Below are positions 2,264-64,000 of a DNA stretch of 64,000 nucleotides, one piece after another. A program made the translations under genes and the position numbers. The notes beneath the pieces are model-generated. The model made no database searches and had not been told where the DNA came from. It worked only from the letters and a program-made list of their open reading frames with translations. The number at the start of each line of letters is the position of its first letter. Positions within the stretch are counted from its first letter, which is position 1. This DNA comes from an uncultured virus (IMG/VR IMGVR_UViG_2585428069_000013) (lineage: Duplodnaviria; Heunggongvirae; Uroviricota; Caudoviricetes): IMG/VR virus record IMGVR_UViG_2585428069_000013; one strand, written 5' to 3'.

Positions 2264-2266
2264 CTG

Positions 2267-4246: not shown

Positions 4247-4260
4247 CCTCTCACCTCCTC

Positions 4261-4303
4261 TTCGGTAGGTCACATGTTACCTCTAAAACCTTTATATATC
4301 AAC
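4261..4303 (-). promoter_or_regulatory. Promoter motif class A, copy 1 (upstream of recombinases)
   Basis: TTGATA-17-TAACAT..TACCGAA; related copies at 24721-24763 and 25833-25874. Confidence 0.55.
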
Positions 4304-44383: not shown

Positions 44384-44407
44384 CTTCTCAAAAAGTATTT
44401 TTAATTT

Positions 44408-46276: not shown

Positions 46277-46441
46277 AATAACCCCTCCAATAAGTAGCGT
46301 AATAAATCATATTATGCTTTTTTAAAGTATCTTGCGTTTTTCATTTAACCCCTTGGATAATATTGTAACATCCAAAGAAAGAACTTTCAATCAATTCAAC
46401 AGAATATTCTTGCTATCGCATGATTTTTCATTCATTAAGCA

Positions 46442-46493
46442 TTGTTTTTTACATTTTGAGATGTTATACTTTAAAAAGTGCACTTTAAAAAGT
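46442..46493 (+). promoter_or_regulatory. Promoter with tandem operator for the HTH-MTase-REase operon
   Basis: TTGTTT-17-TATACT (extended -10) overlapped by ACTTTAAAAAGT-GC-ACTTTAAAAAGT (46468-46493). Confidence 0.55.
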
Positions 46494-46549
46494 GGTCTTT
46501 ATCTAAGCCACTTCACTTGTTTTAATGTAAAAGTTGAGAGGTGAAATCA

Positions 46550-46753
46550 ATGTCCATAAGTTATAAAAAATTATGGAAATTACTTATTGACAAAGATATG
46601 AAAAAGAAGGATTTACAGATTGCCGCTGGAATAAGCTCTTCTTCCATTACTAAAATGTCAAAAAATGAAAATATAAGTACCGAAACGTTAACTAAAGTTT
46701 GCAAGGCACTTGACTGTGATATTTCTGATATTGTTGAAATGATAAAAGACTGA
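46550..46753 (+). CDS. Small Cro/C1 HTH regulator (repressor or R-M controller)
   Basis: SYKKLWKLLID..MKK.DL...AGISS..I.K..KNE.I....L.K.C.AL.C.I.DI. Confidence 0.88.
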   Translation: MSISYKKLWKLLIDKDMKKKDLQIAAGISSSSITKMSKNENISTETLTKVCKALDCDISDIVEMIKD

Positions 46754-46791
46754 TATTGAGCAAATATCTTTAAATACATCGGGGGGTAATA

Positions 46792-47760
46792 ATGAAGATA
46801 AATACATTTTTCGACTTTTGCTCTGGTATAGGAGCCGGAAGGCTAGGCTTAGAGCAGAGTGGATTAAAATGTGTCGGTTATTCCGATACAAGTAGACTAT
46901 CGGTTGAAACATACAAACAGATGTTTAACACTGAAAATGAAAAGAACTTTGGGAATTTAAAAAAAATTAAATGTGAAGCCCTGCCATCATTTGATCTTTT
47001 AATTGCGGGTTTTCCCTGCCAATCATTCTCTGTCATAGGTAGAAAAGCAGGTTTTGATGATGATAGAGGACAAATAATTTTCCATCTTATAAAAATTCTT
47101 AATGAAACTCGCCCAAAATGCTTCATATTAGAAAACGTACGTGGGCTTGTGAGCCATGATAAAGGTACAACTATAAAAAAAATTATGAGTGAGTATGATG
47201 ATATCGGATACTCAGTTGTTTACAAGGTACTAACCAGCCTTGATTATGGAGTCCCTCAAATGCGGCAACGAGTATATTTCATTGGATTTGATAAGAAATC
47301 CAATCTATCTGCTGATGGCTTCGAGTGGCCAACAGTTGAACCTGTTCTTGATTTAGAAAACTATTTAATTGATTCAAACAATGATATATCAGAGATTAAT
47401 CTTGAAAAATTTACATACTACCTAAAAAATCCAACAAATCAAGGAAAACATGTACCAACCGATTTCCTGGATGAAGAAAAACTTATAATTGACACAAGAA
47501 TGTCCGATTTAAGGTTATACCGTGGAAAGGTGCCAACATTACGCTCGCAGAGAGACGGCATTTTTTACATAAAAAATCATTCAATTAAGGAACTAACAGG
47601 TTTTGAAGCACTACTTTTACAAGGTTTTCCTGTTGAATACGCAGAAAAGGTAAAAGACAGTGTTACAAATAGACACTTACTTATGCAGGCTGGAAATGCG
47701 ATGACAGTTAATGTCATTAAAAAATTAGGTGATTGCATCATCAATCATCTTGAAAAATAG
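46792..47760 (+). CDS. C5 DNA methyltransferase, M.Hpy99III-like (predicted GCGC)
   Basis: DFCSGIG.GRLGLE, GFPCQ, ENV, DTR.SDLRLY....PTLR, LLLQGFP, QAGNAM match the recalled H. pylori GCGC methylase. Confidence 0.85.
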   Translation: MKINTFFDFCSGIGAGRLGLEQSGLKCVGYSDTSRLSVETYKQMFNTENEKNFGNLKKIKCEALPSFDLLIAGFPCQSFSVIGRKAGFDDDRGQIIFHLIKILNETRPKCFILENVRGLVSHDKGTTIKKIMSEYDDIGYSVVYKVLTSLDYGVPQMRQRVYFIGFDKKSNLSADGFEWPTVEPVLDLENYLIDSNNDISEINLEKFTYYLKNPTNQGKHVPTDFLDEEKLIIDTRMSDLRLYRGKVPTLRSQRDGIFYIKNHSIKELTGFEALLLQGFPVEYAEKVKDSVTNRHLLMQAGNAMTVNVIKKLGDCIINHLEK

Positions 47761-47773
47761 GAGGATAATTATT

Positions 47774-48568
47774 ATGTCATCAATATGGGAAGATTTTGAA
47801 ATTGACTGTACCGAATACTTAAATAGAAAATTCGGTGAATATGCAAGCTTTAAACATGAAGGTGGATCTGATTCTACCGTTCCAGACATTAAAGTAAAAA
47901 CTAAATCTGGCAGTACTTTTTACATTGATGCAAAACACTCTCCAGCACAATGCGGTCAGTTTGTTTTGCTTCCGGATATTGCATCCGGCACATTCAATTA
48001 TAGTCAGCAAAATTCCAATCGAATCAATGCTTACGCAGTAAAAATCATGGAACATATGAATGCTCAATTTGACGAGTTTAAAGAGGCTGGAACAGCCGGC
48101 AAAGAAATAATAATGAATAATGGCTCTGACATATTTACAAACTGGATTATTGATACCTATAGAAACAAGGGAACCCGCTATTTTATAACAAATAACTATA
48201 CTATTTTACCTATTGAGAGATTTAGTGAGTACTTCTATGTTACTGCTAAATATAGAATTAAACGCAGCGGATCTAGTGATTGTGGGAAAAGTAATATATC
48301 CAATGTTCTAAGCTACATTAGATCCCATAACTATGTTATTAAAAGTACAAGAGAAGAAGGTGGTAAACTTTTTGTAGCTTCAACTCAATCTCTTCATAAT
48401 CAGCGTTTTATATTACGTGGATATGAGTATATGTTCTCTTTGCGTGATTCCGAATATGAAATTAGAAAGCTTTCTAACACTTTTAATGCAAATGTAATTT
48501 TTTCAATTAATTTAAAAAATACTAAAAAAGGAATAGACTCAAATGAGTTCACACAGGCTTTGAAGTAA
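47774..48568 (+). CDS. Type II restriction endonuclease, R.HhaI-like (predicted GCGC)
   Basis: W..FE..C..YLN, SDST..DI, FYIDAK...QCGQFVL.P, YRIK.SGS, LSNTFNANVIFSI match recalled R.HhaI. Confidence 0.8.
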   Translation: MSSIWEDFEIDCTEYLNRKFGEYASFKHEGGSDSTVPDIKVKTKSGSTFYIDAKHSPAQCGQFVLLPDIASGTFNYSQQNSNRINAYAVKIMEHMNAQFDEFKEAGTAGKEIIMNNGSDIFTNWIIDTYRNKGTRYFITNNYTILPIERFSEYFYVTAKYRIKRSGSSDCGKSNISNVLSYIRSHNYVIKSTREEGGKLFVASTQSLHNQRFILRGYEYMFSLRDSEYEIRKLSNTFNANVIFSINLKNTKKGIDSNEFTQALK

Positions 48569-48878
48569 GCCCTTCCTCAAGGAACTGTTTGTACTTATTT
48601 AGTGCATGCTTAAATGTACTAAACTGGTATTTTCCTATTGGTAAATCAACATTTTTATATTTCTTCATGTTGTCATTTATCCCTTTGTTTTGAAAAAGCG
48701 AAAACAAATATTGATATTTATCACTGCGATATTGCTCATCAATATCGCAGTTTTCTATTGCCCTCTCAAAACGTTTCAATCTTGATACAAAATCACTTTG
48801 TATCTTCTTCGGCACATCATTTTCAGATAGCCATTGTCTGAATTCCATCTCGTTCATTTGCTGCTCCCTCCATGGCAC
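48549..48878 (-). CDS. Hypothetical protein coupled to the methylase
   Basis: F..WL....K..SD.VSRLKR.E; overlaps the MTase end and the REase end. Confidence 0.6.
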   Translation of the reverse strand: MPWREQQMNEMEFRQWLSENDVPKKIQSDFVSRLKRFERAIENCDIDEQYRSDKYQYLFSLFQNKGINDNMKKYKNVDLPIGKYQFSTFKHALNKYKQFLEEGLTSKPV

Positions 48879-49839
48879 TTCCTATCTCTTGACCAATCAG
48901 TTGCAAAACATCAATAACTACAGAATTACCAAATTGCTTATATGCTTGATTTGAACTTTTACAAATTTTATAGCTATCAGGATATCCCATTATTCTTGCA
49001 CATTCTCTGGGATGTAGTTTTCTGGTCTTTCCATTAATTAGGTATCCACCAGTCTTAGCAAATATTCCTCCTCCGTAAGCCGAAAGCGTAATTGCTATCC
49101 CTTTTGTACTGTATATTCTTTCACCTTGACCACCTTTGTTTACTATACCTAGTCTAATTGGTTTGTTACTGTACTGATTATCTTCAACCCCATTAAAATA
49201 AGTATCTGGACGTTCTATGTATAAATCCTTTACCTGATTTTCATCCTCTAATAAAAAATCTTCAACGTGCCTTTTTAATGGGAATGACTTTGGAAAACTG
49301 AAATCTTCAATGTTTATGTCATTTCTAAAACAAACCATGTAGATACGTTCTCTCTTTTGAGGAATTCCATAGTTAACAGCATTCAAAACTTTCTGATGAA
49401 ATCTATACCCCAATTCCTCCATTATGGCTTTCACAACCGAAACAGTTTTACCATCGTCATGAGAAGCAAAATTCTTAACATTTTCCATAAAAACAATCTT
49501 TGGCTTCTTAGCTTTTATAATTCTTGCTACATCGAAGAATAACGTACCTCTACTGTCGTCAAATCCACGCTGTTTTCCACTTATTGAGAAAGCCTGACAC
49601 GGAAATCCAGCACATAAAATATCATGTTCTGGAATAGAATTTTCATCTACTTGTGTGATGTCCCCTTCTGGAATATCTCCAAAATTATCTGCATAAACTT
49701 CTCGTACGGGTTCATCCCATTCATTTGAATATACACATTTAGCACCCAGTGATTCCAATGCAATTCTAAAACCACCTAATCCAGCAAATAAATCAATAAA
49801 TGTAAAATCAGTAAGTGACTTTTTCTTTATATCAATCAT
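48823..49839 (-). CDS. hhaIM: C5 DNA methyltransferase, M.HhaI orthologue (GCGC)
   Basis: Near-colinear with M.HhaI including the TRD KGGQGERIYST.GIAITLSAYGGGIFAKTGGY. Confidence 0.92.
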   Translation of the reverse strand: MIDIKKKSLTDFTFIDLFAGLGGFRIALESLGAKCVYSNEWDEPVREVYADNFGDIPEGDITQVDENSIPEHDILCAGFPCQAFSISGKQRGFDDSRGTLFFDVARIIKAKKPKIVFMENVKNFASHDDGKTVSVVKAIMEELGYRFHQKVLNAVNYGIPQKRERIYMVCFRNDINIEDFSFPKSFPLKRHVEDFLLEDENQVKDLYIERPDTYFNGVEDNQYSNKPIRLGIVNKGGQGERIYSTKGIAITLSAYGGGIFAKTGGYLINGKTRKLHPRECARIMGYPDSYKICKSSNQAYKQFGNSVVIDVLQLIGQEIGSAMEGAANERDGIQTMAI

Positions 49840-49873
49840 AAGTAATCTCCTTTTTAAAGTTTAAGTATTCCTC

Positions 49874-49905
49874 ATTATTATAGCGCAATGCGCTATAATA
49901 ATCAA
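49874..49905 (-). promoter_or_regulatory. Methylase promoter containing a 14-bp-arm palindrome with two GCGC sites
   Basis: TTGATT-17-TATAAT; ATTATTATAGCGCA-A-TGCGCTATAATAAT. Confidence 0.85.
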
Positions 49906-50164
49906 GCACTTCATCTCTATATCACTAAGTTTTTTCTCAATCAAAATCTGTATTTCTTGTTCCTATATTATACATCTATCCTATCTCCACAACCCTAAGA
50001 AATTATCCATTCTATCTCCTCGACCCTACGCACATTTTTACAGTGGATTTGTTTCCTCAAAACATAAAAATAAGGATTTCTGAGGTTAAAAGGTACTGCC
50101 GAATAACAGGCAGAATATCTTCCAATCTCGGAAACCCTTTATTTATCAGTGTTTTGAGTAGTCC

Positions 50165-50227
50165 TTATTTCTAAACCCTTGACATCAAGACAACACACTC
50201 AACGTGCTTCGTCACTGGAAACATATC
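50165..50227 (-). other. att junction: rumA/rlmD 3'-end-like fragment
   Basis: Encodes DMFPVTKHVECVVLMSRV*, the TrmA/RumA C-terminal motif. Confidence 0.8.
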
Positions 50228-50535
50228 CTACAATGAAGATGCGACAACGTGAGTTGAAAGAACTATCGCTAGTCCCTTTTCAATTAAGCTTCCATTTATT
50301 AAAATATGTTTAAAATATATAGGCTTCAAGCCTTCCTTATTTCCCTAACTCTGGAGAATATTTATTTTCATAGTATTAAATCCCCCAAATTTCCACCTGT
50401 TTTCGCTTTTAAGAGACTCCATGGCTTTGTCATTCAGTTCAATAGGAATACAAATTCCTAATAAACGAACCACTTCAAGCTGATCTCCTACCTTTACTTC
50501 AACAATACTTCCATTAATAACTTTTTCTACAGTTC
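50228..50535 (-). pseudogene. Thermonuclease (SNase) pseudogene, paralogue of 58168-58893
   Basis: TVEKVINGSIVEVKVGDQLEVVRLLGICIPIELNDKAME / YYENKYSPEL / LINGSLIEKGLAIV align to the intact copy, with stops and frameshifts. Confidence 0.75.
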
Positions 50536-50741
50536 ATCCTTTATTATCCTAAATTTAATTCAATATTTAGGAACCTTTTTCTGACTACATCAATTGCCTA
50601 TTATTAACTTAATAGGTATAAACGCTTTAGTCTACTTATATAAATTTTTCTTTTTCAGATTTTACTTCAAATAAATCTTGATGCATTATCTTATCGAACA
50701 CACAATAGCCTTAACACAGCACTATCGTTATTTGTTTACCA

Positions 50742-51344
50742 CTAAATTTTTTCGGCCTTTTTAATTGCTTCGAATAGTCTGCTTAAATTGATTCTCAACA
50801 AATCTGTATCTATAATCGGTCCAGAGTAAAAATGTTCATTATGAAAAGCAACAACAAAATCATAATAACATTTTATTACTTCACCATTACATGCACTTTT
50901 TACTGCATTATAAAAACCACTATTTATAAACTCTTCAATGTTTGAATTAGCTTTATTCCAGTATTCTATATACTTTTTGTGTCGCTCTATTTTATATTCT
51001 AATAATTCATTTGTTCTCTCATCATCATTCAAATACTTTTCTAAAATAGAAAGTCTTCCTTCTACAGTCACAGATCCACCTAACAAATTATCTTCTTCAT
51101 CCAAATAATCAGATTGCGTCATAATACTGTCATAGCTTGGTAGTGACTTTTTTAACGCGTCATGATATGGTCTAATTGATTTTATACTTTGCTGTTTTAT
51201 TTGCTTATTGTTCATCCTTATAGCTATTAATATAGATATTACTGTAGCAACAGCTCCAATCATAGATCCTATAAAAGATAACCAACCATCTGACGAAATT
51301 TTATTAATATCCATAATATCTCCTATACTTTCTATAGATTTCAA
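50742..51344 (-). CDS. Hypothetical protein with a single N-terminal TM helix
   Basis: SSDGWLSFIGSMIGAVATVISILIAI; open 200-aa frame in AT-rich DNA. Confidence 0.6.
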   Translation of the reverse strand: MKSIESIGDIMDINKISSDGWLSFIGSMIGAVATVISILIAIRMNNKQIKQQSIKSIRPYHDALKKSLPSYDSIMTQSDYLDEEDNLLGGSVTVEGRLSILEKYLNDDERTNELLEYKIERHKKYIEYWNKANSNIEEFINSGFYNAVKSACNGEVIKCYYDFVVAFHNEHFYSGPIIDTDLLRINLSRLFEAIKKAEKI

Positions 51345-51641
51345 TTTACAAAATTACTATTTACATTGACGATACTTCATAAATAAAATGTTTATATACT
51401 TTAACTTTCTGTTATTATCAGAATGACAACAGCACACGTCCAATTATATGAATAATGTGAAGTTCAACTGTACGCAAAAAACTCATATTACCTATGATTC
51501 AACCTGCAAACAATATTGCTAATATCTGCAATATAAATTATTAACTAGTTAAACTTTAATTTGTAAATATGTTTCTTTAACTTACGTTATATGCTAGTTG
51601 TTCCAATAACTATCAAATACTAAACTATTTAATAAACCTTT

Positions 51642-53330
51642 TTATTGATTATTTCGTAATGTTTTTAAATTACAAACCTTTTTATAATGTATTCCATCAT
51701 TTCTATTATAATTATAAGTATATGTATCAGGATACATACTCTCTCTTATTATTCTTCCAATCTCTATGCACATTCCTGCAGGTGCTGCAATAAATAAATG
51801 AATCTCTTCATATTTGCTATATATACTATCTAATTTGTTTTTAATAATATTTTTTACTCTTAATACATCATTTCTATAATTCAAGTATCCTAATCTTGGA
51901 CTATCAACTTTAAATGATAATAAATCATATTCTTTTTCTATAACTTGATTAATATCTTCTTGTTTTACTTCTGAACTTACTTCTAGCGCTACAGCTAGAA
52001 TATCATTACTACCATTAATAAAATTCTCTTTTACTGATATATTATCATCTTTTTCATCAAATACCCAACTTTCCTCATTTTCACTATATTGATATATCTT
52101 TATATTGGGTGAATCATTTTGCATTAAATAGCCTAATGAAACTAGTAATGGTATCTGTGCTATAGGAAATATATGAACATTATCAGTTTTTATTTCAGCT
52201 ATTATTGAATCATAAAAAATCACTAAATCTTTTAAATATTTGTTCCAATCATAATCTGATTTTGGATAAATATTTTTATGTCCAAATTTATAATCAGATG
52301 TATTTTTAAGATTATATCTCCTGTTTATTTCTTCATAATCTAAAGGTATACCCATCAACTTAAAGTCAATAATTGTATCTATTTTCTTTGATTTTTCCTT
52401 GTTATACTTCTCTCCCTTTAAATAATACTTACCATGCTTGGCTGCCTCTACTGAATAATCATACATCCATTTTGCAAATGATGTACTCCAATTATAAAAC
52501 ATATAATAACTTTGATTATTATCAACATCAATGTTACCTAAAATAAACCCTGCTGGATAATCATCAAATTCTGCTCTTGCTTGTTTACAAAAGCATAACT
52601 CCATATCTGCATTTCTATCGTGCTCTATAATAGCTTGATGGCAATGCCCTCCTAGATACATATCAATCCCCTTAGCTCTAAATATAGATTTCAGGTTATT
52701 TCTTTCTTGTGGATTTAAATCTTCTAATCTATGATGACCTATTACAATATTAAAATCTTCATTATTTATTGTTTCTAAACACTTATATACATTATTTAGT
52801 CCAACGTGAATTCTGCCATCCTCTACGTTTGAATCATAGCACATCCATGATGTATTTAAGTGGATAATATTTACTCCTTCAATTACTTTCTCAACAAAAT
52901 GTATATTTTCTTTTGGATAATCTCTACCCAAAAGATTTTTGTATGTTATAAAAAAATTATTTTGAGCATCTATCAATAAGCTTATATTATTACTTTCACT
53001 TTCTTCATCTAGTATACCACTTCCCCATAGTTCTTTTACTATATCCTCTCTATTATCTGGAATATTTCTACTTAAATCGTGGTTACCTGGTACTATAAAT
53101 ACTCTTTCTTTAGCTATATCAAGTTTATAAATTAAATCTAATATAAATTCTTCCGCTAAATCATATCCAGAATCTTTATCACTTATATCCCCAGTTATAA
53201 TAATAAAATCAAATTTTTCTTCATTATTTAATTCTTCTACTTCATTAATAAGAGCATCTCTCATTACCTTAGTTTTTATCCCACTACAATATGAGTGTAA
53301 ATCTGATAAGTGTAACCATCTATGTTTCAT
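51642..53330 (-). CDS. CBASS effector: calcineurin-like metallophosphoesterase fused to SAVED
   Basis: HLSDLH, TGD, PGNHD, GHH, GHCH; C-terminal VHIFPIAQIPLLVSLGY, IYQY..W, IHLFIAAPAG....IGR SAVED motifs. Confidence 0.85.
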   Translation of the reverse strand: MKHRWLHLSDLHSYCSGIKTKVMRDALINEVEELNNEEKFDFIIITGDISDKDSGYDLAEEFILDLIYKLDIAKERVFIVPGNHDLSRNIPDNREDIVKELWGSGILDEESESNNISLLIDAQNNFFITYKNLLGRDYPKENIHFVEKVIEGVNIIHLNTSWMCYDSNVEDGRIHVGLNNVYKCLETINNEDFNIVIGHHRLEDLNPQERNNLKSIFRAKGIDMYLGGHCHQAIIEHDRNADMELCFCKQARAEFDDYPAGFILGNIDVDNNQSYYMFYNWSTSFAKWMYDYSVEAAKHGKYYLKGEKYNKEKSKKIDTIIDFKLMGIPLDYEEINRRYNLKNTSDYKFGHKNIYPKSDYDWNKYLKDLVIFYDSIIAEIKTDNVHIFPIAQIPLLVSLGYLMQNDSPNIKIYQYSENEESWVFDEKDDNISVKENFINGSNDILAVALEVSSEVKQEDINQVIEKEYDLLSFKVDSPRLGYLNYRNDVLRVKNIIKNKLDSIYSKYEEIHLFIAAPAGMCIEIGRIIRESMYPDTYTYNYNRNDGIHYKKVCNLKTLRNNQ

Positions 53331-53649
53331 ATCTTTTTCTCCTCGTAAAATTTTATTAAGTCAGCTTTACTTCTTTTGTATTAATATCCCCACTCCATAC
53401 CCTAATTTCTATTATTCCAATTATAATAAAAAAAGCATATCGACTTTCTCCGGATTTACAATTTATCAAAGCTTTTTTCCATGACATTATATCTATCCAA
53501 GAAGGATCTGGTATATCAACTGGATGAGTATACCAATTCCCTTCCTAAACCATAAATTCTACATAAAATCATAAAGAATATTTTTATACTAAGTATTAAC
53601 GTTACAATATTTATAAAAGAACCTATAATAGCCCCCATTTAGTTTGTAC

Positions 53650-54168
53650 TTATATTTTTTTATATAAATCACCATCTTTCTCACATTCAAATATTTCCAC
53701 AATGTGTTTTGTCTCAAAATCACCAACCCATATTCTAATACTTTTTGTACCAGCTATAAGAAAAAACATATATTTACTAGCAGTTCTATCTTTTATCAAT
53801 GTGTCATTCCAATCATCCCAATCTACTATCGATGGGTTAGGAATAGTTTGTGGGTGAGTATGCCACACCCCCATATAAAAGCTTTTTCTGACTCGTGCCT
53901 TTAATAGAAATAGCTTATGGATAGGATCTTTTATTTTAAAATGAATTCTGCTACAAATATCCAATGGCTGAGGATATGTTACATATTCCAAGGAAATGTT
54001 CCCAGTTCTTTCATGCTTGTATCCTAATATAAAACCTCCACCTTCAGGTGCATAATCATCATTTTGAATCCATTTGCTTATTTCCTGAAATACTTCTGGC
54101 AATATATCTACTACTTTTCCATTTGGAAGTTTCATTTTTATACATCTATTAGCTATCTCTATCGCCAC
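53650..54168 (-). CDS. cap3: CBASS Cap3 JAB/MPN isopeptidase
   Basis: EGGG.ILG, YMGVWHTHP...P.PS..D. Confidence 0.9.
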   Translation of the reverse strand: MAIEIANRCIKMKLPNGKVVDILPEVFQEISKWIQNDDYAPEGGGFILGYKHERTGNISLEYVTYPQPLDICSRIHFKIKDPIHKLFLLKARVRKSFYMGVWHTHPQTIPNPSIVDWDDWNDTLIKDRTASKYMFFLIAGTKSIRIWVGDFETKHIVEIFECEKDGDLYKKI

Positions 54169-55792
54169 AGCATTGACACTTCCCTTCTTTAAAAGTATTT
54201 CCTTGATTAATTACAGAAGTAGGCTCTATATCTATTAAACAATTATCTTCAAATTCACCCCTAAAGGTTCTCTTAACCGTATCTAATATAACACTCGTCG
54301 TTCTTAATAGAATTTCAGTACCATAAGCAACTCTTGTAGCTCCGCAGCCATTTCTAATAGTGTTTTGTGTTACTAATTCATCTGGTAATTTATTTGCGCT
54401 ATTATTTACTAAATCGCCTTCTTTATTGGTATATAAACATTCAAAACATCCTTTCTTTGAATAGTCAACTTTCAAAATATGGCTATTTGTTCCTCCTGCT
54501 TCAAGCCAAGAATATATTACTGGTTTATCATAGTTAAACTCTTTAAAAACAGTATTAGCCATAAGTTGGACATCACTGTTCCCTACCGTAAAAATTATCA
54601 TATCAAAACCATGCATATCTTTTTTTAGAATTTCTTGAGTGAGGTATTCATCTTTTTCATTTACAATAATTTCCGGATGCATTAATTCCAAATCATATTT
54701 CATAGCTATCACTTTACTGATATTACTCCATGAAAGCCTTGCTCTGTGGCGCATTATATTTGCTTCTTCTAATGTGTCTTCATCATATAAAGTTAAATTC
54801 TTTATTCCTAACTTCACCAACTCTGTTGCCAAATAGCTTCCAAGGGATCCAACACCAACTATGGCAACCTTTTTATCAACTATTGATGTATCATTTCCGA
54901 TTTGTTCATTTAAAAATAAATAATCGCAACGTTTTGTTTCTACTAGTTCAATTTTTTCAATTGCATTTCCCAATTTATCCATAAGTGTTTCTGTTTTTAA
55001 ATTTTTAAAATATACCAGGCAGCAAAAGTTAATTCTATGATTTAAAACCATCATTTCAAATATAAGAAACGCTCTATTAGATTTTACCTTTACTTTTTTT
55101 ATAGATTCATATGTCTCATGGCCTATTCGTGCTACATCTCTTCCTTTAACAATTTTCAAAATCTCATCAATTTTCCAAAGCTTATCTTTTACTGGTGGCA
55201 ATATCCTTCTATTATCTGTAATTGGAATATAGAATGCACATATATTATGTACAAAGCTCCATGCATCTTTGTCATTCAGCTTAATTCCATTTGTTACGGC
55301 TCTAAACATCTTATTTTTATTTTGGTAAACATTCATACTTTGAAACACTCTATCCGAAGCAACATATAATCTCAAAGGAATATCATAATTTACTAGTTGA
55401 TTCCAATAGTACAAAAATTCTTTTTGAAATTCTTCCTCTATTTCCAATGGTGATAAAGATAATAGATGAATAAGACGGTCTATGGTATCAATTATTTTTT
55501 CTTCGTATGACATTAAGTAATTAATTATATCTCCTGATTCATGAAGACATACTAAACGATATTTCTGCTTATCTTTATCTATTGGAATTTCAAATTGCAT
55601 TATATGCGGATAATCATATTGACTATCATTCTTTACTAAAATAAATGGTTTGCTAGTCCTTTTTTCTTCTTTTGAATACCAAATGCCATATTCCTTATCC
55701 TTGAGTTTGAAAAATACAATATCATCTTCTTCGCATAAAATTTGTATTTCATCATATGTAGATAGTATCTCTTTAATAATTTGATTCTCCAC
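54149..55792 (-). CDS. cap2: CBASS Cap2 E2-E1 (ThiF) fusion
   Basis: N-terminal YPHI..LVCL..EF..EF..YW E2-like; VAIVGVGSLGS, N..RH, GCFECL, GCG, CQCC; start probably GTG 55792. Confidence 0.88.
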   Translation of the reverse strand: MENQIIKEILSTYDEIQILCEEDDIVFFKLKDKEYGIWYSKEEKRTSKPFILVKNDSQYDYPHIMQFEIPIDKDKQKYRLVCLHESGDIINYLMSYEEKIIDTIDRLIHLLSLSPLEIEEEFQKEFLYYWNQLVNYDIPLRLYVASDRVFQSMNVYQNKNKMFRAVTNGIKLNDKDAWSFVHNICAFYIPITDNRRILPPVKDKLWKIDEILKIVKGRDVARIGHETYESIKKVKVKSNRAFLIFEMMVLNHRINFCCLVYFKNLKTETLMDKLGNAIEKIELVETKRCDYLFLNEQIGNDTSIVDKKVAIVGVGSLGSYLATELVKLGIKNLTLYDEDTLEEANIMRHRARLSWSNISKVIAMKYDLELMHPEIIVNEKDEYLTQEILKKDMHGFDMIIFTVGNSDVQLMANTVFKEFNYDKPVIYSWLEAGGTNSHILKVDYSKKGCFECLYTNKEGDLVNNSANKLPDELVTQNTIRNGCGATRVAYGTEILLRTTSVILDTVKRTFRGEFEDNCLIDIEPTSVINQGNTFKEGKCQCCGDRDS

Positions 55793-56831
55793 CAAAATTA
55801 TGCTCCTTTTTACTAGATGCGTTTGATGATGTTGATACATTTACTTGTTTTACCGGCACTTTAAATTCATCGCCAAAAACTTTTTGTACACTTAACCCTG
55901 CATCGTGTTCAGATTCTTCATTACATGCATCAGTTAAATTTTGTAATGCCGTATTTAATTTATCATAAAATTTAACTCCATATGTATCACTGCTATCTTT
56001 CATCTTCTTAAAAACATCTGTCCACGGTGTTACAGGTAAAGATCTTGAAATATTTGCTTTTACAAGCACTCCATTTTCATATGTTAAAGAAAATTTGTTA
56101 ATAATACCTTGAATTGTTTTTTGTAAGGATGATAAATCATCATCTCCTTCGGAGCTTGTACTTGCAATAAAGCAATCGCATGCAAGAAGAGTAAGTCCTA
56201 TACTTGGTGGCACTTCATGATCCAAAGTTGAATTATAATATTTCTCTAATTTCCACTTCTTAATATAGCGGATGATTCTTCTTAGTTGATTATTACCATT
56301 GATCTTACCTATAAGATAGTCATTTAGTCCTTTAGGATCTGCTGGTTCCCATGAATAATTACCTTCAGTTGCAAATTCCCTACCTCTGGCAAGATATATA
56401 TTCCCATTATGCTTTGCATACAATGGTAGATCTATATGCATCCATTCAGTTCCATTTTCAACATAGGATACATTTAAACATGGTTCTTTAATAGTAACAG
56501 ATCTATTCCATAAATTTATCGCATCCCTACCATATCCTTTAATTTTTCTTGGATCACTATTTTGATCGATATCAAGTGGAAACATAACTGCAACATCTCT
56601 ATCAATACTTCCACCATGATTATTCTTAATTGTAGTATGCAACTTATAACTTCCCTGATCAAATATTTCAATATCACTCTTTTTTACTTCAATATCATGT
56701 TTTTCGCATTCCGATGGAAAATTACTCTTAAAATTATTCTCCAAAGTTTCCCTTTTTTCTATAAGGTCTTCAACCTCTGTGTCGATTGTAATTTCTTTGT
56801 AGAAATCTTCAAACTGCTTTTTTAATTTCAT
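55773..56831 (-). CDS. CD-NTase (cGAS/DncV-like cyclic oligonucleotide synthase)
   Basis: QGSY...T.IK, DRD acidic pair, KEPC, HIDLPLY, W..ADPK, LRRIIRYIK.W, VFG..F. Confidence 0.9.
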   Translation of the reverse strand: MKLKKQFEDFYKEITIDTEVEDLIEKRETLENNFKSNFPSECEKHDIEVKKSDIEIFDQGSYKLHTTIKNNHGGSIDRDVAVMFPLDIDQNSDPRKIKGYGRDAINLWNRSVTIKEPCLNVSYVENGTEWMHIDLPLYAKHNGNIYLARGREFATEGNYSWEPADPKGLNDYLIGKINGNNQLRRIIRYIKKWKLEKYYNSTLDHEVPPSIGLTLLACDCFIASTSSEGDDDLSSLQKTIQGIINKFSLTYENGVLVKANISRSLPVTPWTDVFKKMKDSSDTYGVKFYDKLNTALQNLTDACNEESEHDAGLSVQKVFGDEFKVPVKQVNVSTSSNASSKKEHNFGGESNY

Positions 56832-57363
56832 AATGTAACTCCTCCTAACTTTTTATTACCAGTCATTTTTGTGAACGATTATTTGAATAGATAAAACAGC
56901 TACACCTATACTTGAGAAAAATGTTTCATTTCAGATCTGGTATTCAAACTTTCACTTAATATAGAACTTATAAGTATTCTTGGCCTAAAATCATTAAAAC
57001 ACGACCTTTCATAATTGAATTAAATAAAATTTTCAAGTTACACAGATAATGAACTGTTATCAATAATTTAATACCTTCTTAAACTTCCGGTTATAGACAT
57101 TAGATATATTACATAATTCATTGATTAATTTGCATATAATACAAATTCTACAAATTAACCTAAATTCCTCCATACACAGCTAAATTTGTACTATTTTAAT
57201 ACCAAACTTAAAAAAGGTAGCCCCCTCGCTACCTTATATAAATATTCAGTCTATTATTCTTATAATCTTATACTGGTGACACAAGATAAGAATGCTTCGT
57301 CATATTTGATTAATAGATATGCTTAAAATTCTTCTTTATAGTATGTTGAAAATGCGGTGGTAA

Positions 57364-57660
57364 TTAATACTTTTTGATATGTTGAAAATTATTTACTTCA
57401 ACATCCCCTTCTCCATGCACTGCAATTTTAAACAAACAACACCTAATCCAAGATTGTTGTCCGACATATGGTTTTATCCGTATTTTAAGTACAAAAATGA
57501 ATGAACGATAAGCATTAGGTTTCTCCACTCTTAAAATATCAATGTTCCAAGGGGCAACTGTCGGTACATCAGTTAGAAATTTTGTAAAATAATCCTCTAC
57601 TGATTTCTGTATAAATGGCATAAGTAGAGAGCAGAAAATATCTTGATATAGTTCTTACTT
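57364..57660 (-). pseudogene. Degenerate DUF3888-like gene
   Basis: ELYQDIFCSLLMPFIQKSV.DY..PTVAP..IDIL.VE...RSF.F...PYVG preceded by an in-frame TAA. Confidence 0.5.
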
Positions 57661-57878
57661 TGAAATTTCGACAGACTTTTAAATAATATTATTGATACTC
57701 CTTGTCTTTTCTTTATCAGTAATCTTTCTGTATTCTTAAAAACTTTTGTAGATTTTGCTCATGGTGCTTCAGTACCTCATCTATTTTCTTTTTTATATCA
57801 CGTTTTTCTCAAAAAAAATATGCTAATATGGAATAATCGAAAAATAAAACACTCAAAAGTACACATTTCTCTCCGTTC

Positions 57879-58046
57879 CCATTACTTACTACTTAAAAAG
57901 GACAAATATATATGATATAATACAATTAAGCGAAAAGTAAACGATACCAATATGATAGCGTTTATTAAGCAAGGGATAATGAGAGGTCTCCTTGCTCTTT
58001 TTTTATTTCCTATATTATACCTACCCTACTTCCATTACTTACTACT
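57879..58046 (+). repeat. 15-bp direct repeat CCATTACTTACTACT x2
   Basis: 57879-57893 and 58032-58046. Confidence 0.8.
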
Positions 58047-58167
58047 GAAAACGAATGCAGTGATATGGTATATATTATTAGAAAAAACATTTCTACACAT
58101 TTTTAAACACTCTTAAAACAAGGCATACTATGGGGGTAGGATGCCTTGTTTTTTTGTTTTCCTTTAG

Positions 58168-58893
58168 TTATTTTACTATATTATTAATAGCATCTTTCAT
58201 TGAACTTACACCACTACTAATGCCTTTTTTCAGTTCATCAGCAGCAGTTTCAGTTGCTTTAGGCACTTCGCTTTTTATCACATCTGAAACCTTCTTGGTA
58301 GTTGGGCTTACAGTATCTTGTATTGTTATGCTTCCCTTATCCTTAACATACTGCCAAATCCCCGCTCCTTCTTCCTTTGCATTATTTTCAACTGATAGAT
58401 AATACTGGCTAGTTTGAGGATTCTGTTTTAAATCATGAGCTGTGATAGCAACAGCAAGTCCAGTACGTAACAAGCCACCACCAAATAAAATGTGTTTTAT
58501 ATAAATATAAGCTGCTATTTTGCCATACTCCCTTATCTGAGGACTATATTTCTCTTCATAGTAATAGAGTTCTACCACCTGCCCCTGTAATTCAGCTTTA
58601 GTTAATTCCATAGCCTTATCCTTCATTTCTACAGGTATATATAACCCTAATAAACTAACAGTTTCAACCTTATCCCCTGTTCTCACTATAAGAGTGCTGC
58701 CATCCAAGACCTTCTCTACTGTTCCACTTATAGATGCCATTCCTTCTGTTCCTTTAATATCAGATATAAGATTATTGGGAGGCTTGGGAGTTCTGCTTAT
58801 GAAATAATAACAACTGGATATAAAAACACAAAAAATTAAGTATACTAATACATTTATCTTCTTTTGCGTCTTAGTTATCTTATGCTTTATCAT
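58168..58893 (-). CDS. Membrane-anchored thermonuclease (SNase) family protein
   Basis: N-terminal TM, V.KVLDG.T, V.LLG, YG...AY, LL..GLA, E..AK..G.GIW; several catalytic residues diverged. Confidence 0.75.
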   Translation of the reverse strand: MIKHKITKTQKKINVLVYLIFCVFISSCYYFISRTPKPPNNLISDIKGTEGMASISGTVEKVLDGSTLIVRTGDKVETVSLLGLYIPVEMKDKAMELTKAELQGQVVELYYYEEKYSPQIREYGKIAAYIYIKHILFGGGLLRTGLAVAITAHDLKQNPQTSQYYLSVENNAKEEGAGIWQYVKDKGSITIQDTVSPTTKKVSDVIKSEVPKATETAADELKKGISSGVSSMKDAINNIVK

Positions 58894-58990
58894 TATTTAC
58901 CTCACATCAATAATTTTAAATCTAGAAATTAGTTGAATCTCCTCCACCACCAAAACTATCACAACTACTATAGCTAAAATATGAATAGTG

Positions 58991-60406
58991 TTACTTTCTC
59001 CTTATTTCTTTATTCAATGCTTGATAAATGTACTCATAAGCCTCTAATTTTAGGTCACTTAGGTTATCTACATTAAAGTATTTTAATATCAAGCCCTCAT
59101 ACATTCCTCTATCTCCCTTGCCTTTAATGTCAAGTTCATCTATTAAAGCTCTTAAAGAGATTATTTCAAGATGACTAACCTTTCTGCTCTCCTTATCATC
59201 AGATGAATACTTTTCAAAACAGGAAATCAACCGGTCATTACCTATAAAAACAGCCTGCTGCAATATCTTCTCTAAGTTCACCTGTTTATCTATGCAATCA
59301 AAGTATCTTAACTTGTTATAAACTTCCATATAATTTTGAATTATTTTATCAGCACATAACTTTACTGGATATGGCTTAGCTCCTTGGTTATGTGCATTTA
59401 AAATATTTTCAATTACTCCCCAATACTTTTCATCAATCCTGGTATCAGTTTTGAAGGTAGATATATGATGATAAATATTACTTAATCTCAACACTGGCAC
59501 ATCAGATTGGTTGTCTATCTTTATGGCCGGATTAACAAATACAATAATAGGGTTGATGTTGATATAAGGTAAATTCACACCTTGCCTTTTCAATTCTTCA
59601 TTTAATAATCTTTGTGTTAAGCCTATATGCCTGTAAGTCTGACTTGTAACATCATTTACCTCCATTACATCTCCTTCAGCACTAAGTCGGCTCCAAAGAC
59701 CATCCTTGCTAACCTTAATCTTGCCTCTACGCCCTACTCCAAAATTTTTGACCTCTATGCAAAAGATTCCTCTTTCACTTATAACTAAATTATCAGATTC
59801 AACAGTATTACTCTCTACAATTAGCCTTATATTACTTAGATTTAATAATTTATCCCTATATAGGTCCAGCTCTCTATCTACAGAGTTTTCTCCGTAAATT
59901 CCTACTTTAGCATTATAGGATTGCTTGGCAGCCCCTTTTACTGCCCTCTCATATTCATTTATGAGTATCCCTAAGTCATTCTTTAAAACAGGAATTGTGG
60001 CATTTAGTTGAAGTCCTCTAAGGTGAGGCAATTTATTGTAATCAGCACTTTTCGCAAGGGGAGCAATCTTACTAATCTTGTTATAATATTGCTTATAAAC
60101 ATTGATGTTATCAGATATTCTTAATAATTTTTCTTTTTCTTCTCTGTAGAAATCCCTCTGCTCATATAAGGTTAGTCTTACTTCTTTATATTTATAATCT
60201 GCTATTGGAGTTCTCATATAGTATAAATCTGCAGTAACTTTTACAGTAGGGGCACTTTGAATTACTTGTTTGGGAACTTCTTTATCAGAAGGAGATGTAT
60301 TCGGTTTTTCCGCTTCTTCTTTGTATATATTTATCTGCAGAGCTGATGGCACGTTTTTAACTTCCCTCTTGAACGCTTTGAATAAATCCTTAAAGCCCAA
60401 ACTCAT
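58991..60406 (-). CDS. NERD-domain nuclease-related protein
   Basis: G..GE..V...L, ESDNLVI...GIFCIEVKN, Q..RH. Confidence 0.82.
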   Translation of the reverse strand: MSLGFKDLFKAFKREVKNVPSALQINIYKEEAEKPNTSPSDKEVPKQVIQSAPTVKVTADLYYMRTPIADYKYKEVRLTLYEQRDFYREEKEKLLRISDNINVYKQYYNKISKIAPLAKSADYNKLPHLRGLQLNATIPVLKNDLGILINEYERAVKGAAKQSYNAKVGIYGENSVDRELDLYRDKLLNLSNIRLIVESNTVESDNLVISERGIFCIEVKNFGVGRRGKIKVSKDGLWSRLSAEGDVMEVNDVTSQTYRHIGLTQRLLNEELKRQGVNLPYININPIIVFVNPAIKIDNQSDVPVLRLSNIYHHISTFKTDTRIDEKYWGVIENILNAHNQGAKPYPVKLCADKIIQNYMEVYNKLRYFDCIDKQVNLEKILQQAVFIGNDRLISCFEKYSSDDKESRKVSHLEIISLRALIDELDIKGKGDRGMYEGLILKYFNVDNLSDLKLEAYEYIYQALNKEIRRK

Positions 60407-60459
60407 ATCCTCCCTCTTATATAAAATTCAAGCCTCCCATTTGAGAGAGGCTGATATTA

Positions 60460-60729
60460 TTATTGCTTATTCTGATTTTTCATAGATTCCATTATTTCTG
60501 GATGTATCTGCAACATCTGATATGTCCACTCCATTGTCTTTCTGCTTTTCTTAATCATTATAGTATCTGTAATAGCTCCTAAAACAAGACAACCCAAAAT
60601 TATTAGAGTATAAGTTGGGTATTCCATTCTTAACTTATAGGCAACAAAAGCAATGATACAATAGCATATATCCATAACAAAAACGCTTAAACTTATTTTA
60701 AATTTATTTGGCATGATTTGCCCTCCCAT
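60460..60729 (-). CDS. Small 2-TM membrane protein
   Basis: Two hydrophobic segments, GGAGG RBS. Confidence 0.6.
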   Translation of the reverse strand: MGGQIMPNKFKISLSVFVMDICYCIIAFVAYKLRMEYPTYTLIILGCLVLGAITDTIMIKKSRKTMEWTYQMLQIHPEIMESMKNQNKQ

Positions 60730-60738
60730 TAATTAAAA

Positions 60739-60984
60739 TTAAAATCCTCCATTGTGGGGATCATTGAAGCTATTTCCGTTATGCATGTCATACCCACCAC
60801 TTTCAAAAGGAGTTACACTTTTCCTTGATTTCTCCATAGACCAATCTACAAACTGTTGATGTTGTTGCCTTTCCATTTCTTCTTTAACTTGAATATCATT
60901 AATACAATTATTTGAGGAATGATTGCCCTTTCTTGCATTTGATATAAACCCAAATATAACCACTCCACAAACTACAAAAAACAT
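60739..60984 (-). CDS. Small membrane-anchored hypothetical protein
   Basis: Hydrophobic N-terminus; start may lie slightly upstream (~61015, GGAGG RBS). Confidence 0.55.
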   Translation of the reverse strand: MFFVVCGVVIFGFISNARKGNHSSNNCINDIQVKEEMERQQHQQFVDWSMEKSRKSVTPFESGGYDMHNGNSFNDPHNGGF

Positions 60985-61024
60985 ACATCAAATTAGTACA
61001 AACATAGAAAACATAGCTTCCCTC

Positions 61025-61684
61025 CTAAAATTTAATTATATTTGATAAAAATTGATTTACAGTAATCGTTGATTTTAATGATACTGAAAGCACTCCTAGA
61101 ACATATACTGCTAAAAGTCCATATTCCATAAAATCATTTCCGCTCTTATATGTTATAAGAGGTATTCTAATCCTTTTGCCACCTAGAAGATAAAGAGCTA
61201 ATCCGTTGCTTGTACACATATCTAAAAGATAGTGTGAAGCTAATCCACATGCATAAGGTATAATGTATTCTTTAGGTAAACTTAAAAGATATAATGGAAC
61301 TGTTAATAATAGTCCTCCTAGTATTGGATCATGGAATATTGTTCTGTGATAACTGAACATATGAAGTCCACTCCATATGCTAAATTTATAATTAACTTTA
61401 CATGAAAGAATTGACATTACTAGGATAATCCCTATGTATTTCAATACTGCTATTGGCGAAGATATTAAAATGGCTCCGGCTAATCCCTTAACAATATTTC
61501 TTTGCTTTGCACTAACGGGGAACAACCACTTATTTATTTTTGAATGTTCTTCATCTATATCTGGAATCATAGCCCCTACCAAAGCTGCTGCCACTACTAT
61601 TATTGGATTGATGTTTAAGTGCATTGAATGTGTTAAAGCTACTCCTGTAACTACTCCAGCTATTGCATGGCTTTGTCCCTTCAT
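61025..61684 (-). CDS. YdjM-like membrane metal-dependent hydrolase
   Basis: M.G.SH, GA.IPDID..HS, HR..FH, G.ASH.LLD..T..G. Confidence 0.85.
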   Translation of the reverse strand: MKGQSHAIAGVVTGVALTHSMHLNINPIIVVAAALVGAMIPDIDEEHSKINKWLFPVSAKQRNIVKGLAGAILISSPIAVLKYIGIILVMSILSCKVNYKFSIWSGLHMFSYHRTIFHDPILGGLLLTVPLYLLSLPKEYIIPYACGLASHYLLDMCTSNGLALYLLGGKRIRIPLITYKSGNDFMEYGLLAVYVLGVLSVSLKSTITVNQFLSNIIKF

Positions 61685-61910
61685 TGTAGTTCCACCTTCT
61701 TTCGTAAAATTTATTTATTTTCTTTTATATCATATATATAATTATAACACAATAAATTTGTTTATTCAAATACATCTTTGTTATTTAAATAGTGACTATA
61801 AAAAACCGAAGTGGTTGTACTCCCTCCCCGGTTTAAAATAAATTCATCTTACTGATATAGTTTAAAAATAGTTACTGCCTTGATGAATCACACTTGGACT
61901 TATTCTCAAA

Positions 61911-62762
61911 CTAATAAATTAAATTTGTATACTTAATTATTTTATTTTTTTCTACTGTTTCTATAAACTCATTAATAGTGTTGTAAAAATCTATTGTTTC
62001 ATTAAGAAATTGCAAATAATAAAGACCTATATATTTTCTAAAAATAATTAGATTCTCTTTTTCTTCGGAATCATCGTATTTGAGACAATCAATATACCCT
62101 ATTAAATCATCACAATAAAAATCAGAAGTCACTGTATCAATTATATCCTTACCTCCTTTAAGTTGATAAAAAGAAGATAGGTTATTAATACCGTAACTTG
62201 AAATGCAAGCACATAAATCATCAATAGGTTTATTAAACTGCTCAATGCTATGTATTAGATTGCTTTGATTTACTTGTAAAAGATATTCTCCAACAGCCTG
62301 CTCATACTTATATTTAATTTCATAATCACTTTGACTTTCAGCATCTTTATCGTAAACATATCCATCATCAACCTCTAAGCTTTTATCAATAATGCTGAGC
62401 AATACAATAAAGTCTGGCCATAAGAACTGAGTTTTATCACCTAGTTCCTTAAAATAATCTACATTTTTTAGAATGTCCATATGATGATAAAGTATAAATA
62501 GTATATTTTTTCGCAAATCATAGTAGAGCGCCATGTTTAACTTTGTATTATAAAATGAATTTAGATAGTAAAAGATAATTGCTCCAGCCACTCCTATTGC
62601 AAGCTGATTAATAACATATAATATGGATTCTGCTATATGATATGTTATATCCCCATAAAGAAACATAGGAGGTAATGTATCTAATAACATAATTATTTTA
62701 TACAATGCTATTATTACAATACAGAATATAAATATTTTTTTAAACGACATTACTTTTTTCAT
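61911..62762 (-). CDS. Hypothetical protein with 2 N-terminal TM helices
   Basis: Open 283-aa frame in AT-rich DNA. Confidence 0.6.
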   Translation of the reverse strand: MKKVMSFKKIFIFCIVIIALYKIIMLLDTLPPMFLYGDITYHIAESILYVINQLAIGVAGAIIFYYLNSFYNTKLNMALYYDLRKNILFILYHHMDILKNVDYFKELGDKTQFLWPDFIVLLSIIDKSLEVDDGYVYDKDAESQSDYEIKYKYEQAVGEYLLQVNQSNLIHSIEQFNKPIDDLCACISSYGINNLSSFYQLKGGKDIIDTVTSDFYCDDLIGYIDCLKYDDSEEKENLIIFRKYIGLYYLQFLNETIDFYNTINEFIETVEKNKIIKYTNLIY

Positions 62763-63118
62763 TGTATACCCCTTTACTCACATTTTTTATATGAAAATCA
62801 TACCATACTTTTAATACCATACCATTAACATTATCCAGTAATAATAATCTAATAGCCTAATATTTATATTGGAATTCCTATATAATAAAAAAACCTTCCC
62901 ACCAAGGAAAGGTTCCCAAATTAGCATATTTAATTTATCTAATTATCAGTGAAAAGAAGCCTTGTTTCTGATAGATTATCTATCTCAAGCTACTTTGTTA
63001 TATTACGTTTAGTATCATTTTAACTTGTCCAGTAATATTCAAATAGTTCGTTACTTGACTTTTTAGTACATTTTTGGTAAAATAATTATATTAATTAGTC
63101 ATAGGAGGAACAACGCTT

Positions 63119-63883: not shown

Positions 63884-63904
63884 AGTTAACCGAGGTACAA
63901 GATT

Positions 63905-64000
63905 ATGTCTATAGAAAATTTTAATGGAGAACGCTTAAAAGCAGCTCGAACAATTAGATGTCTTTCTAGCACTGAGCTCGCTAAACTAATAGGTGTTTCT
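63905..64000 (+). CDS. XRE HTH protein (possibly XRE-ImmA fusion), 5' part only
   Basis: MSIENFNGERLKAARTIRCLSSTELAKLIGVS, truncated by the window edge. Confidence 0.7.
   Translation, partial: MSIENFNGERLKAARTIRCLSSTELAKLIGVS

Follow-up and report, generated by a model that had tools for sequence, protein, structure and literature searches.

A type II CBASS operon with a metallophosphoesterase-SAVED effector of possible nucleotide-depleting activity and the remnant of a second cap3 gene

The uncultured virus record IMGVR_UViG_2585428069_000013 of IMG/VR (Caudoviricetes) was analysed over a stretch of 64,000 nucleotides, hereafter the window. The locus was an intact type II cyclic-oligonucleotide-based antiphage signalling system (CBASS) of four genes, one of which encodes its single effector. 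This protein joins a binuclear metallophosphoesterase (calcineurin-like; MPE) at the N-terminus to a SAVED sensor at the C-terminus. By analogy with its relatives, it would be switched on by a cyclic dinucleotide and deplete nucleotides or cofactors such as NAD+; the probability of this reading was put at about one half. Somewhat more tentatively, MPE-SAVED may stand for an undescribed CBASS killing chemistry, in which a cyclic-dinucleotide-gated MPE attacks pyrophosphate linkages, either in NAD+ (to NMN and AMP), in nucleoside di- and triphosphates (NDP, NTP) or in both, and a scar of cap3 in the operon may mark the exchange of cassettes between CBASS backbones.

A reading made from the letters of the DNA and its open reading frames (ORFs), here called the sequence-only reading, had assigned four genes to a cGAS/DncV-like nucleotidyltransferase (CD-NTase), Cap2, Cap3 and a 562-aa effector. 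The ORFs, all on the minus strand, lay exactly where it had placed them (Table 1), and all four products matched CBASS models in the PADLOC run that this reading had asked for. The identity as type II CBASS with MPE-SAVED as sole effector was upheld by profile, fold and conserved context. Pfam detected a DncV-like nucleotidyltransferase domain in the CD-NTase (PF21654, 3.5e-9), ThiF in Cap2 (6.2e-21) and Prok-JAB in Cap3 (7.2e-9). The NCBIfam Cap3 profile matched Cap3 with 5.5e-17, under its curated cut-off, and the JAMM motif HxH-x7-S-x2-D was present. The active-site residues of the CD-NTase, read from the translation, were intact (G60-S61, D77xD79, D134). The true start of Cap2 may lie near 55819, as the orthologue in a genome of another genus (L089) begins at the equivalent of residue 8. 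The sole terminator-like site within 50600-57400 was a hairpin upstream of the operon, and the same scan found no terminator between cap3 and the effector gene. An ORF of 200 aa downstream of the effector (50742-51344) had an N-terminal hydrophobic stretch that looked transmembrane by eye. It had no family match in Pfam, PADLOC or NCBIfam and was absent from all nine related loci, which leaves the MPE-SAVED protein as the only candidate effector.

Within the effector, Pfam placed Metallophos at residues 5-232 (6.3e-16) and SAVED at residues 376-554 (1.7e-32); the NCBIfam SAVED profile covered residues 345-556 (1.3e-30). The five calcineurin-like metal motifs noticed in the sequence-only reading were present as D10/H12, G47-D48, G82-N83-H84-D85, H199-H200 and G228-H229-x-H231 and were invariant in all 58 aligned family members. 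N159 was likewise invariant (58/58 sequences). An AlphaFold model of the whole effector, built from the alignment of 58 sequences, reached a mean local confidence (pLDDT) of 92.1 and a predicted template-modelling score (pTM) of 0.87, and the MPE domain modelled alone reached a pLDDT of 94. In the predicted MPE sandwich (residues ~1-305), motifs III and IV are separated by a long insert of helices. Fold and motifs place it in the MPE superfamily. The C-terminal half modelled as SAVED, with the two fused CARF-like lobes of that fold. Foldseek aligned it to the Cap5 SAVED domain 8ysq with E 2.8e-15, a template-modelling (TM) score of 0.78 and a root mean square deviation (rmsd) of 3.6 over 264 columns. 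Its matches at a Foldseek probability of 1.0 were Cap5 (8ysq, 7rwk, 7rwm and entries beginning with 8fm), Cap14 (9om7, 9wq3), CalpL and SAVED-CHAT. A sequence search returned no solved structure of an MPE-SAVED fusion, and neither a nuclease capping domain nor a DNA-binding domain was detected in the effector by Pfam and Foldseek.

The effector family was traced with a protein word-index search, which gave 270 relatives, the best 120 of which were listed. Among those listed, 95 combined Metallophos with SAVED, 24 had an MPE domain without SAVED and one was a fragment of 338 aa; 12 of the 95 bore an extra C-terminal S24 (LexA-like) peptidase domain. Sources included several Clostridium species, Romboutsia, Anaerospora, Bacteroidales and Fibrobacteres, and many relatives came from Clostridia. 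In the taxonomic family of the window, 7 of 381 scored genomes (20 unscored) matched at E <= 1e-30, and the match was full length at five of eight places. Such patchy spread is expected, as defence genes usually show it. In a scan of virus contigs, none of the 11 relatives among the matches listed spanned the SAVED half. The order CD-NTase, Cap2, Cap3, effector was found in all nine loci with a full-length relative, and there no more than ~35 nt lay between the stop of cap3 and the start of the effector. In a sister clade (P0085-P0096; L005, L006, L007), the MPE-SAVED effectors of ~700 aa ended in an S24 (LexA/UmuD-like) autopeptidase, which hints at RecA- or DNA-damage-linked regulation in that clade.

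The sequence-only reading had seen no other recognisable effector, and none was found in the window operon or in the nine related loci. This finding bears on the alternative it had offered, a signal-degrading regulator. In that case SAVED would capture the messenger and the MPE domain would hydrolyse it, the killing being done by something else. Such a role agrees with the fold, which is like that of cyclic-nucleotide- and cGAMP-cleaving enzymes, and with stand-alone SAVED proteins that can be ring nucleases (9r8s). It is nevertheless very improbable. MPE-SAVED fills the effector slot right after cap3 in 9/9 loci and is modelled as an effector by PADLOC, and an effector-less CBASS is not expected under purifying selection, which the ratio of non-synonymous to synonymous substitution rates (dN/dS) of 0.16 indicates for the effector gene.

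The best Foldseek match of the MPE domain was Bacillus subtilis YydB (chain 9a6c_B of the integrative YydD-YydB model 9a6c; E 2.7e-30, TM score 0.89, 30% identity). Fold neighbours were ranked with VIA-align, in which 59 chains reached Z >= 8; the listed top 50 (Z >= 10) all had the metallophosphoesterase fold. The top match was Rv0805 (Z 21.7, rmsd 2.9 over 228 residues), and Lmo2642 reached Z 20.9. Small-molecule phosphodiesterases and phosphatases (Rv0805, Lmo2642, GpdQ, PAP, ASM/SMPDL3 and ADPRibase-Mn) lay at Z ~18-21.7. Mre11 and SbcD reached 14.4-16.6 (Mre11 16.6), below eleven families of small-molecule, non-nuclease enzymes. The domain was also acidic, with a net charge of -21 in the window and a family median of -13 (range -22 to -2).

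Profile searches tied the domain to named antiphage phosphoesterases. NCBIfam DS9_1 ('anti-phage phosphoesterase', NF053862) matched all 41 members of the domain alignment and DS8 (NF053861) matched 25 of them. The window domain matched DS8 with 4.1e-24 (residues 7-284 against profile positions 1-284) and DS9_1 with 1.7e-13 and 50.2 bits, the latter over the MPE part only (4-231 against 195-441). No PUA or HAD match was found in the operon or its neighbours with Pfam and NCBIfam, and DS9_1 was above its cut-off in none of 401 genomes of the phylum of the window and in none of 400 in the class of genome G803 (1 unscored). DS-8 (metallophosphatase-NACHT) and DS-9 (metallophosphatase + HAD) protect Escherichia coli and need their catalytic residues, according to the available part of the report describing them (PMC13092281). 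For the MPE + HAD system Metis, the accessible portion of the Metis preprint describes cleavage of NAD+ to nicotinamide mononucleotide (NMN) and AMP with depletion of NAD+ in vivo. The excerpted PUA-Cal-HAD preprint reports conversion of dNDP to dNMP, collapse of the dNTP pool and filament formation, and names N367 as the substrate-recognition Asn of the PUA-Cal family. N159 of the window effector lies 111 residues after D48 (motif II) and N367 lies 112 after D255, the two being compared by spacing and not by alignment. An assignment of N367 to the motif III Asn, by which the spacing would be unlike that of Calcineurin-CE, was dropped, as the profile coordinates of DS9_1 fit N159 better.

In other relatives, the MPE domain was joined with SEFIR/TIR (P0113) or with a P-loop NTPase (P0115). 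YydB-like MPE genes in Bacillus (L003, 8001-11446; L004, 7995-11423) were followed by a DUF2326 ATPase gene, whose product matched PADLOC PDC-M68B (3.2e-44) and, more faintly, the LmuB model of Lamassu (7.9e-9). The PADLOC effector model PDLC00736 also matched YydB-like proteins (3.6e-66). By sequence, the CBASS warhead thus appears to be common to the SMC-like candidate defence pair YydB-YydD. The nearest genome has a second, SAVED-less YydB-like MPE gene at another chromosomal site (L088, G001:C3:664365-665255), with 31% identity over residues 2-296 and a frame of 468 aa.

In the proposed mechanism, phage infection would activate the CD-NTase, whose C-terminus would be conjugated by Cap2 and deconjugated by Cap3, tuning its activity. 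The product of the CD-NTase would be a cyclic oligonucleotide, in all likelihood one of two nucleotides. Binding of this signal by SAVED would lead to self-association, as in other SAVED effectors, and the MPE domain would be switched on. The active MPE would then hydrolyse abundant nucleotide metabolites, NAD+ (yielding NMN plus AMP) and/or (d)NDP and (d)NTP, and the resulting metabolic collapse would abort the infection. Killing by nucleotide or cofactor depletion had been one of the options of the sequence-only reading; it gains support from the homology of the MPE domain to the DS-8 and DS-9/Metis/PUA-Cal effectors. Profile, fold and charge each favour a small nucleotide substrate over DNA, and none of them is decisive.

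Several points weigh against nucleotide depletion. The window domain scored far under the curated cut-offs (DS8, 84 versus 790 bits; DS9_1, 50.2 versus 420 bits), so by sequence it would be a related domain and not a member of the DS8 or DS9_1 families. The equivalence of N159 and N367 is a putative one, drawn from spacing and profile coordinates. Net charge is weak evidence, and a gap of ~5 Z units is suggestive and not decisive. DS-9, Metis and PUA-Cal-HAD are probably one and the same system, to judge by their shared gene content of MPE + HAD. As the window effector is without a HAD partner, the dNTP route of PUA-Cal-HAD may not apply to it. The PADLOC model of the effector is labelled 'Endonuclease', and YydD, the Bacillus partner of YydB, appears to resemble LmuB, an SMC-like protein of Lamassu, a system whose effectors are often DNases. 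For DS-8, its authors, in the available part of their text, prefer a cyclic-nucleotide substrate, drawing on the analogy with SMPDL3A (PMC13092281).

The last three of these points feed two rival explanations. In one of them, the effector is a signal-activated nuclease whose MPE domain cuts DNA or RNA like Mre11/SbcD or the MPE of Pseudomonas putida and kills like Cap4 and Cap5. Besides the PADLOC label, this reading can draw on the fold shared with Mre11 and SbcD, on the pairing of YydB-like MPE with the DUF2326 ATPase, which resembles Rad50-Mre11 or Lamassu, and on Cap4 and Cap5, the best-studied SAVED effectors of CBASS, which are DNases. The SbcD profile matched 28 of the 41 domain relatives (best E 5.9e-10). 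However, these matches were partial; on the window domain, SbcD (TIGR00619) covered residues 4-99 only, that is the shared metal motifs I-III, with 31 bits against a cut-off of 77.65. Together with the missing capping domain and the absence of an SbcC/Rad50-like gene from the operon, this sets the domain apart from Mre11/SbcD. Every nuclease ranked below eleven small-molecule enzymes by fold, the closest named profiles were DS-8 and DS-9, with NAD+ and nucleotides as the known substrates there, strong acidity of the domain is seen throughout the family, and no DNA-binding domain was detected beside it. A nuclease, the main rival, was judged unlikely.

In the other, the effector is a cyclic-nucleotide phosphodiesterase that kills through the loss of a housekeeping cyclic nucleotide such as c-di-AMP. 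This messenger is essential in many Firmicutes, and many family members come from Clostridia. The top fold neighbours, the cyclic-nucleotide phosphodiesterases Rv0805 and Lmo2642, together with SMPDL3A, and the substrate proposed for DS-8 agree with such an activity. Bacteroidales, Fibrobacteres and other groups have the family too, though, and in DS-9-type relatives whose activity has been measured the substrates are NAD+ and (d)NDP. The CpdA profile matched the window domain only marginally (E 2.6e-4, 20.6 bits against a cut-off of 225), although Rv0805 was still the best fold match. This explanation is improbable, and nucleotide or cofactor depletion was preferred.

For the signal, the nearest solved homologues of the CD-NTase were 8ysn, 8ysc and 8ysd (E 4e-31 to 6e-30) and 7ljo. 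7LJO is named CdnB, and a CdnB of Deinococcus wulumuqiensis has been solved (PMC12804361). We infer that the CD-NTase entries beginning with 8ys are this D. wulumuqiensis CdnB, since the sibling entry 8ysq is the Cap5 of that species. The closest counterparts of the SAVED half were those of Cap5 and Cap14, both of them sensors of cyclic dinucleotides. Because the CD-NTase is closest to CdnB-type structures and SAVED to sensors of cyclic dinucleotides, the messenger is most likely a cyclic dinucleotide. The CD-NTase ended in ...NFGGESNY (55773-55790) and that of L089 in ...NFGRESNY. The closest backbones (L005-L007) ended in ...SFG, while A, AK or GA stood at the end of others. Relative to the closest backbones, the window CD-NTase thus has a 5-residue C-terminal extension past the usual terminal F-G. 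It may be a pro-form whose C-terminus has to be trimmed before conjugation by Cap2, an idea that leans on earlier work on Cap2 and Cap3.

The sequence-only reading had overlooked that cap3 and the effector gene lie ~320 nt apart and that this gap holds the remnant of a second cap3. The remnant encodes the C-terminal third of a Cap3 and was 45% identical to residues 100-156 of the resident Cap3 (E 4e-16) and 62-67% identical to the Cap3 of two other loci, L090 and L091; its first JAMM histidine is replaced by Y. It was contiguous with the effector gene in a nucleotide match of 80.6% to L090/L091, which was confined to 51639-53556. The effector was 77% identical to those of L090/L091, and the likeness fell to 41% for the CD-NTase, 31% for Cap2 and 35-41% for Cap3. 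The backbone of CD-NTase, Cap2 and Cap3 was closest to L005 (60%, 44% and 58%), where the effector is fused to S24. Because the likeness to L090/L091 is limited to effector and remnant, these two would stem from another lineage, and the operon is best read as a chimera in which an effector and the tail of its own cap3 were joined to the backbone of a different CBASS lineage. A 40-codon ORF after cap3 (53516-53638), hydrophobic by eye, was weighed as a possible 5' leftover from a membrane effector that had been replaced; no homologue of it was found and the idea was unsupported.

The same chimera including the gap was present in L089, where a single blastn alignment covered 5563 nt at 92.6% identity. 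Homology ended at both edges of the module and the flanks were unrelated, with a prophage-adjacent island in the window and housekeeping genes in L089. Between the two copies, dN/dS was 0.12, 0.22, 0.19 and 0.16 for the four genes in order. From these comparisons, the chimera appears to be under purifying selection and to have moved between genera as a 5.6-kb unit. A mismatched chimera, whose swapped-in SAVED domain is blind to the product of the resident CD-NTase and which survives as a non-functional relic, is hardly probable. The leftover cap3 fragment, the 320-nt gap and the C-terminal extension of the CD-NTase would fit a relic, but none of the four ORFs is broken in either genus, dN/dS has been 0.12-0.22 since the chimera formed, and no terminator separates cap3 from the effector gene. 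MPE-SAVED effectors likewise serve the closest backbones, L005-L007, which makes it plausible that the signal suits the sensor of the acquired effector.

Table 1. Positions of the CBASS genes, the effector domains and the recombination scar in the window.
Feature	Coordinates	Strand	Basis or remark
CD-NTase, CdnB-like, 352 aa	55773..56831	-	PADLOC Cyclase PDLC00795, 9.2e-98
Cap2, E1/E2 fusion, 563-aa ORF	54149..55840	-	PADLOC E1-E2 PDLC00830, 1.2e-271, residues 17-562
Cap3, JAB/JAMM isopeptidase, 172 aa	53650..54168	-	PADLOC JAB PDLC00902, 4.7e-45
MPE-SAVED effector, 562 aa	51642..53330	-	PADLOC Effector PDLC00736, 2.6e-303, 1-560 of 561
Effector residues 1-305, MPE domain (YydB/DS-8/DS-9 clade)	52416..53330	-	five motifs, fold, NCBIfam
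Effector residues ~315-556, SAVED sensor domain	51663..52388	-	Pfam, NCBIfam, Foldseek
3' remnant (62 codons + stop) of a second cap3 of foreign origin	53356..53544	-	recombination scar
Spacer between cap3 and remnant	53557..53649	-	frame filled with stops, no L090/L091 homology
Terminator-like hairpin closing the upstream gene	57214..57235	-	upstream limit of the operon transcription unit
Complete mobile module (four genes plus promoter region and ~90 nt downstream)	51551..57100	-	

The window also contained a complete-looking, siphovirus-like prophage at ~693-46276 on the minus strand. Its genes included an amidase lysin, tape measure, major tail, head, portal, terminase and several methyltransferases. 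The replication module comprised a primase-helicase, a DNA polymerase, an exonuclease and a single-stranded DNA-binding protein. Two large serine recombinases and a 137-aa recombinase fragment stood in tandem at 692-4273. The computed provirus record (~693-53330) ends at the start of the effector gene, and for this reason its limit was regarded as an artefact of trimming at a gene edge. Between prophage and CBASS (46792-49839), two convergent C5 cytosine methyltransferase genes (322 and 338 aa) flanked ORFs of 279 and 109 aa without a family. This is probably a type II restriction-modification module with an unrecognised nuclease. The ~900 nt at 49840-50741, between the methylase and the 200-aa ORF, held no ORF > 60 aa and no Rfam match, and the Rfam scan of the whole 64-kb window gave 0 matches. 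Upstream of CBASS, minus-strand genes for a DUF3888 protein, a staphylococcal-nuclease-like protein (241 aa) and a NERD-domain protein (471 aa) were found at 57364-60406; these could belong to the same island as additional defence genes. On the right, neither the flank (56832-64000) nor the next 20 kb was conserved among 11 further species of the genus, where only repeats matched, and the left flank matched one genome only. In the 20 kb past window position 64000 (L095), multi-copy elements were present, with a 1.9-kb stretch 100% identical on another contig and two more, of ~2.0 and ~1.5 kb, that recurred in five or more copies with ~81% identity. A megablast search of 44000-64000 against a phage collection gave no match.

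The effector family is not new, and PADLOC has a dedicated full-length CBASS model for it. The MPE-SAVED fusion was reportedly first noted by Burroughs et al. in 2015 and is said to have been classified by Millman et al. in 2020. Calcineurin-like phosphoesterase is listed among the SAVED-fused domains of Cap effectors in the accessible part of a review (PMC10419184). The statement of the sequence-only reading that the fusion had been predicted bioinformatically with no mechanism known agrees with a literature search that covered few subscription journals and found no published mechanism or activity for MPE-SAVED. The operon thus keeps its classification as a standard, already catalogued type II CBASS, and MPE-SAVED is an effector class for which no published activity was found there. 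New here are the conserved gene order in 9/9 loci, the link of the MPE domain to the YydB/DS-8/DS-9 clade, the fold ranking and the chimera. If nucleotide depletion is true, the activated enzyme would yield NMN and AMP or nucleoside monophosphates, and CBASS would gain a route of NAD+ or nucleotide depletion chemically distinct from that of TIR. In the available portion of the Metis preprint, its authors argue that cleavage of the NMN + AMP type resists reconstitution of NAD+ by phage NARP1. One warhead clade would then be found under at least four sensors: SAVED, PUA (Metis/DS-9), NACHT (DS-8) and an SMC-like ATPase (YydBD). The cap3 remnant would document directly, as is rarely seen, that CBASS operons exchange effectors, with the chimera kept by selection. 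If the scar is read correctly, cassettes of warhead and sensor would swap between CBASS backbones by recombination inside cap3.

Compared with named systems, the effector resembles Cap5 (HNH-SAVED) and Cap4 (endonuclease-SAVED) in its N-terminal enzyme, its C-terminal SAVED domain and its gene beside that of the CD-NTase. Its SAVED domain is closest in sequence and fold to that of Cap5 (8ysq, 7rwk, 7rws). Unlike in Cap5 and Cap4, the warhead is a binuclear MPE and not HNH or restriction-endonuclease-like, and its substrate is probably not DNA. With DS-9A/MisA/PUA-Cal, it has in common a homologous MPE domain and a similar spacing of the metal motifs and of a conserved Asn. Activation by a sensor ligand and abortive infection are known for those proteins and would apply to the window effector by analogy. 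The sensors differ, as SAVED would read the product of the CD-NTase, whereas theirs is PUA-like and reads m6-dAMP, and no HAD gene is present here. The score of 50 bits, far under the cut-off of 420, puts the window domain in a different subfamily from DS-9A. DS-8, the best named profile match, likewise has the MPE as effector at the N-terminus; in contrast to the window effector, this single protein of the DefensePredictor set is regulated by a NACHT/STAND NTPase and not by SAVED and a CD-NTase. YydB, the closest structural relative of the MPE domain, has no SAVED and pairs with a DUF2326/PDC-M68B/LmuB-like ATPase. A literature search of titles and abstract openings turned up no functional study of YydB/YydD. 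If nucleotide depletion is true, the effector would resemble TIR-SAVED and the NAD+-depleting effectors of CBASS and Thoeris, in which a nucleotide signal leads to loss of NAD+. The chemistry would differ, as MPE would cut the pyrophosphate bond to give NMN and AMP, whereas TIR, which has a different fold, cuts the glycosidic bond to give nicotinamide and ADP-ribose.

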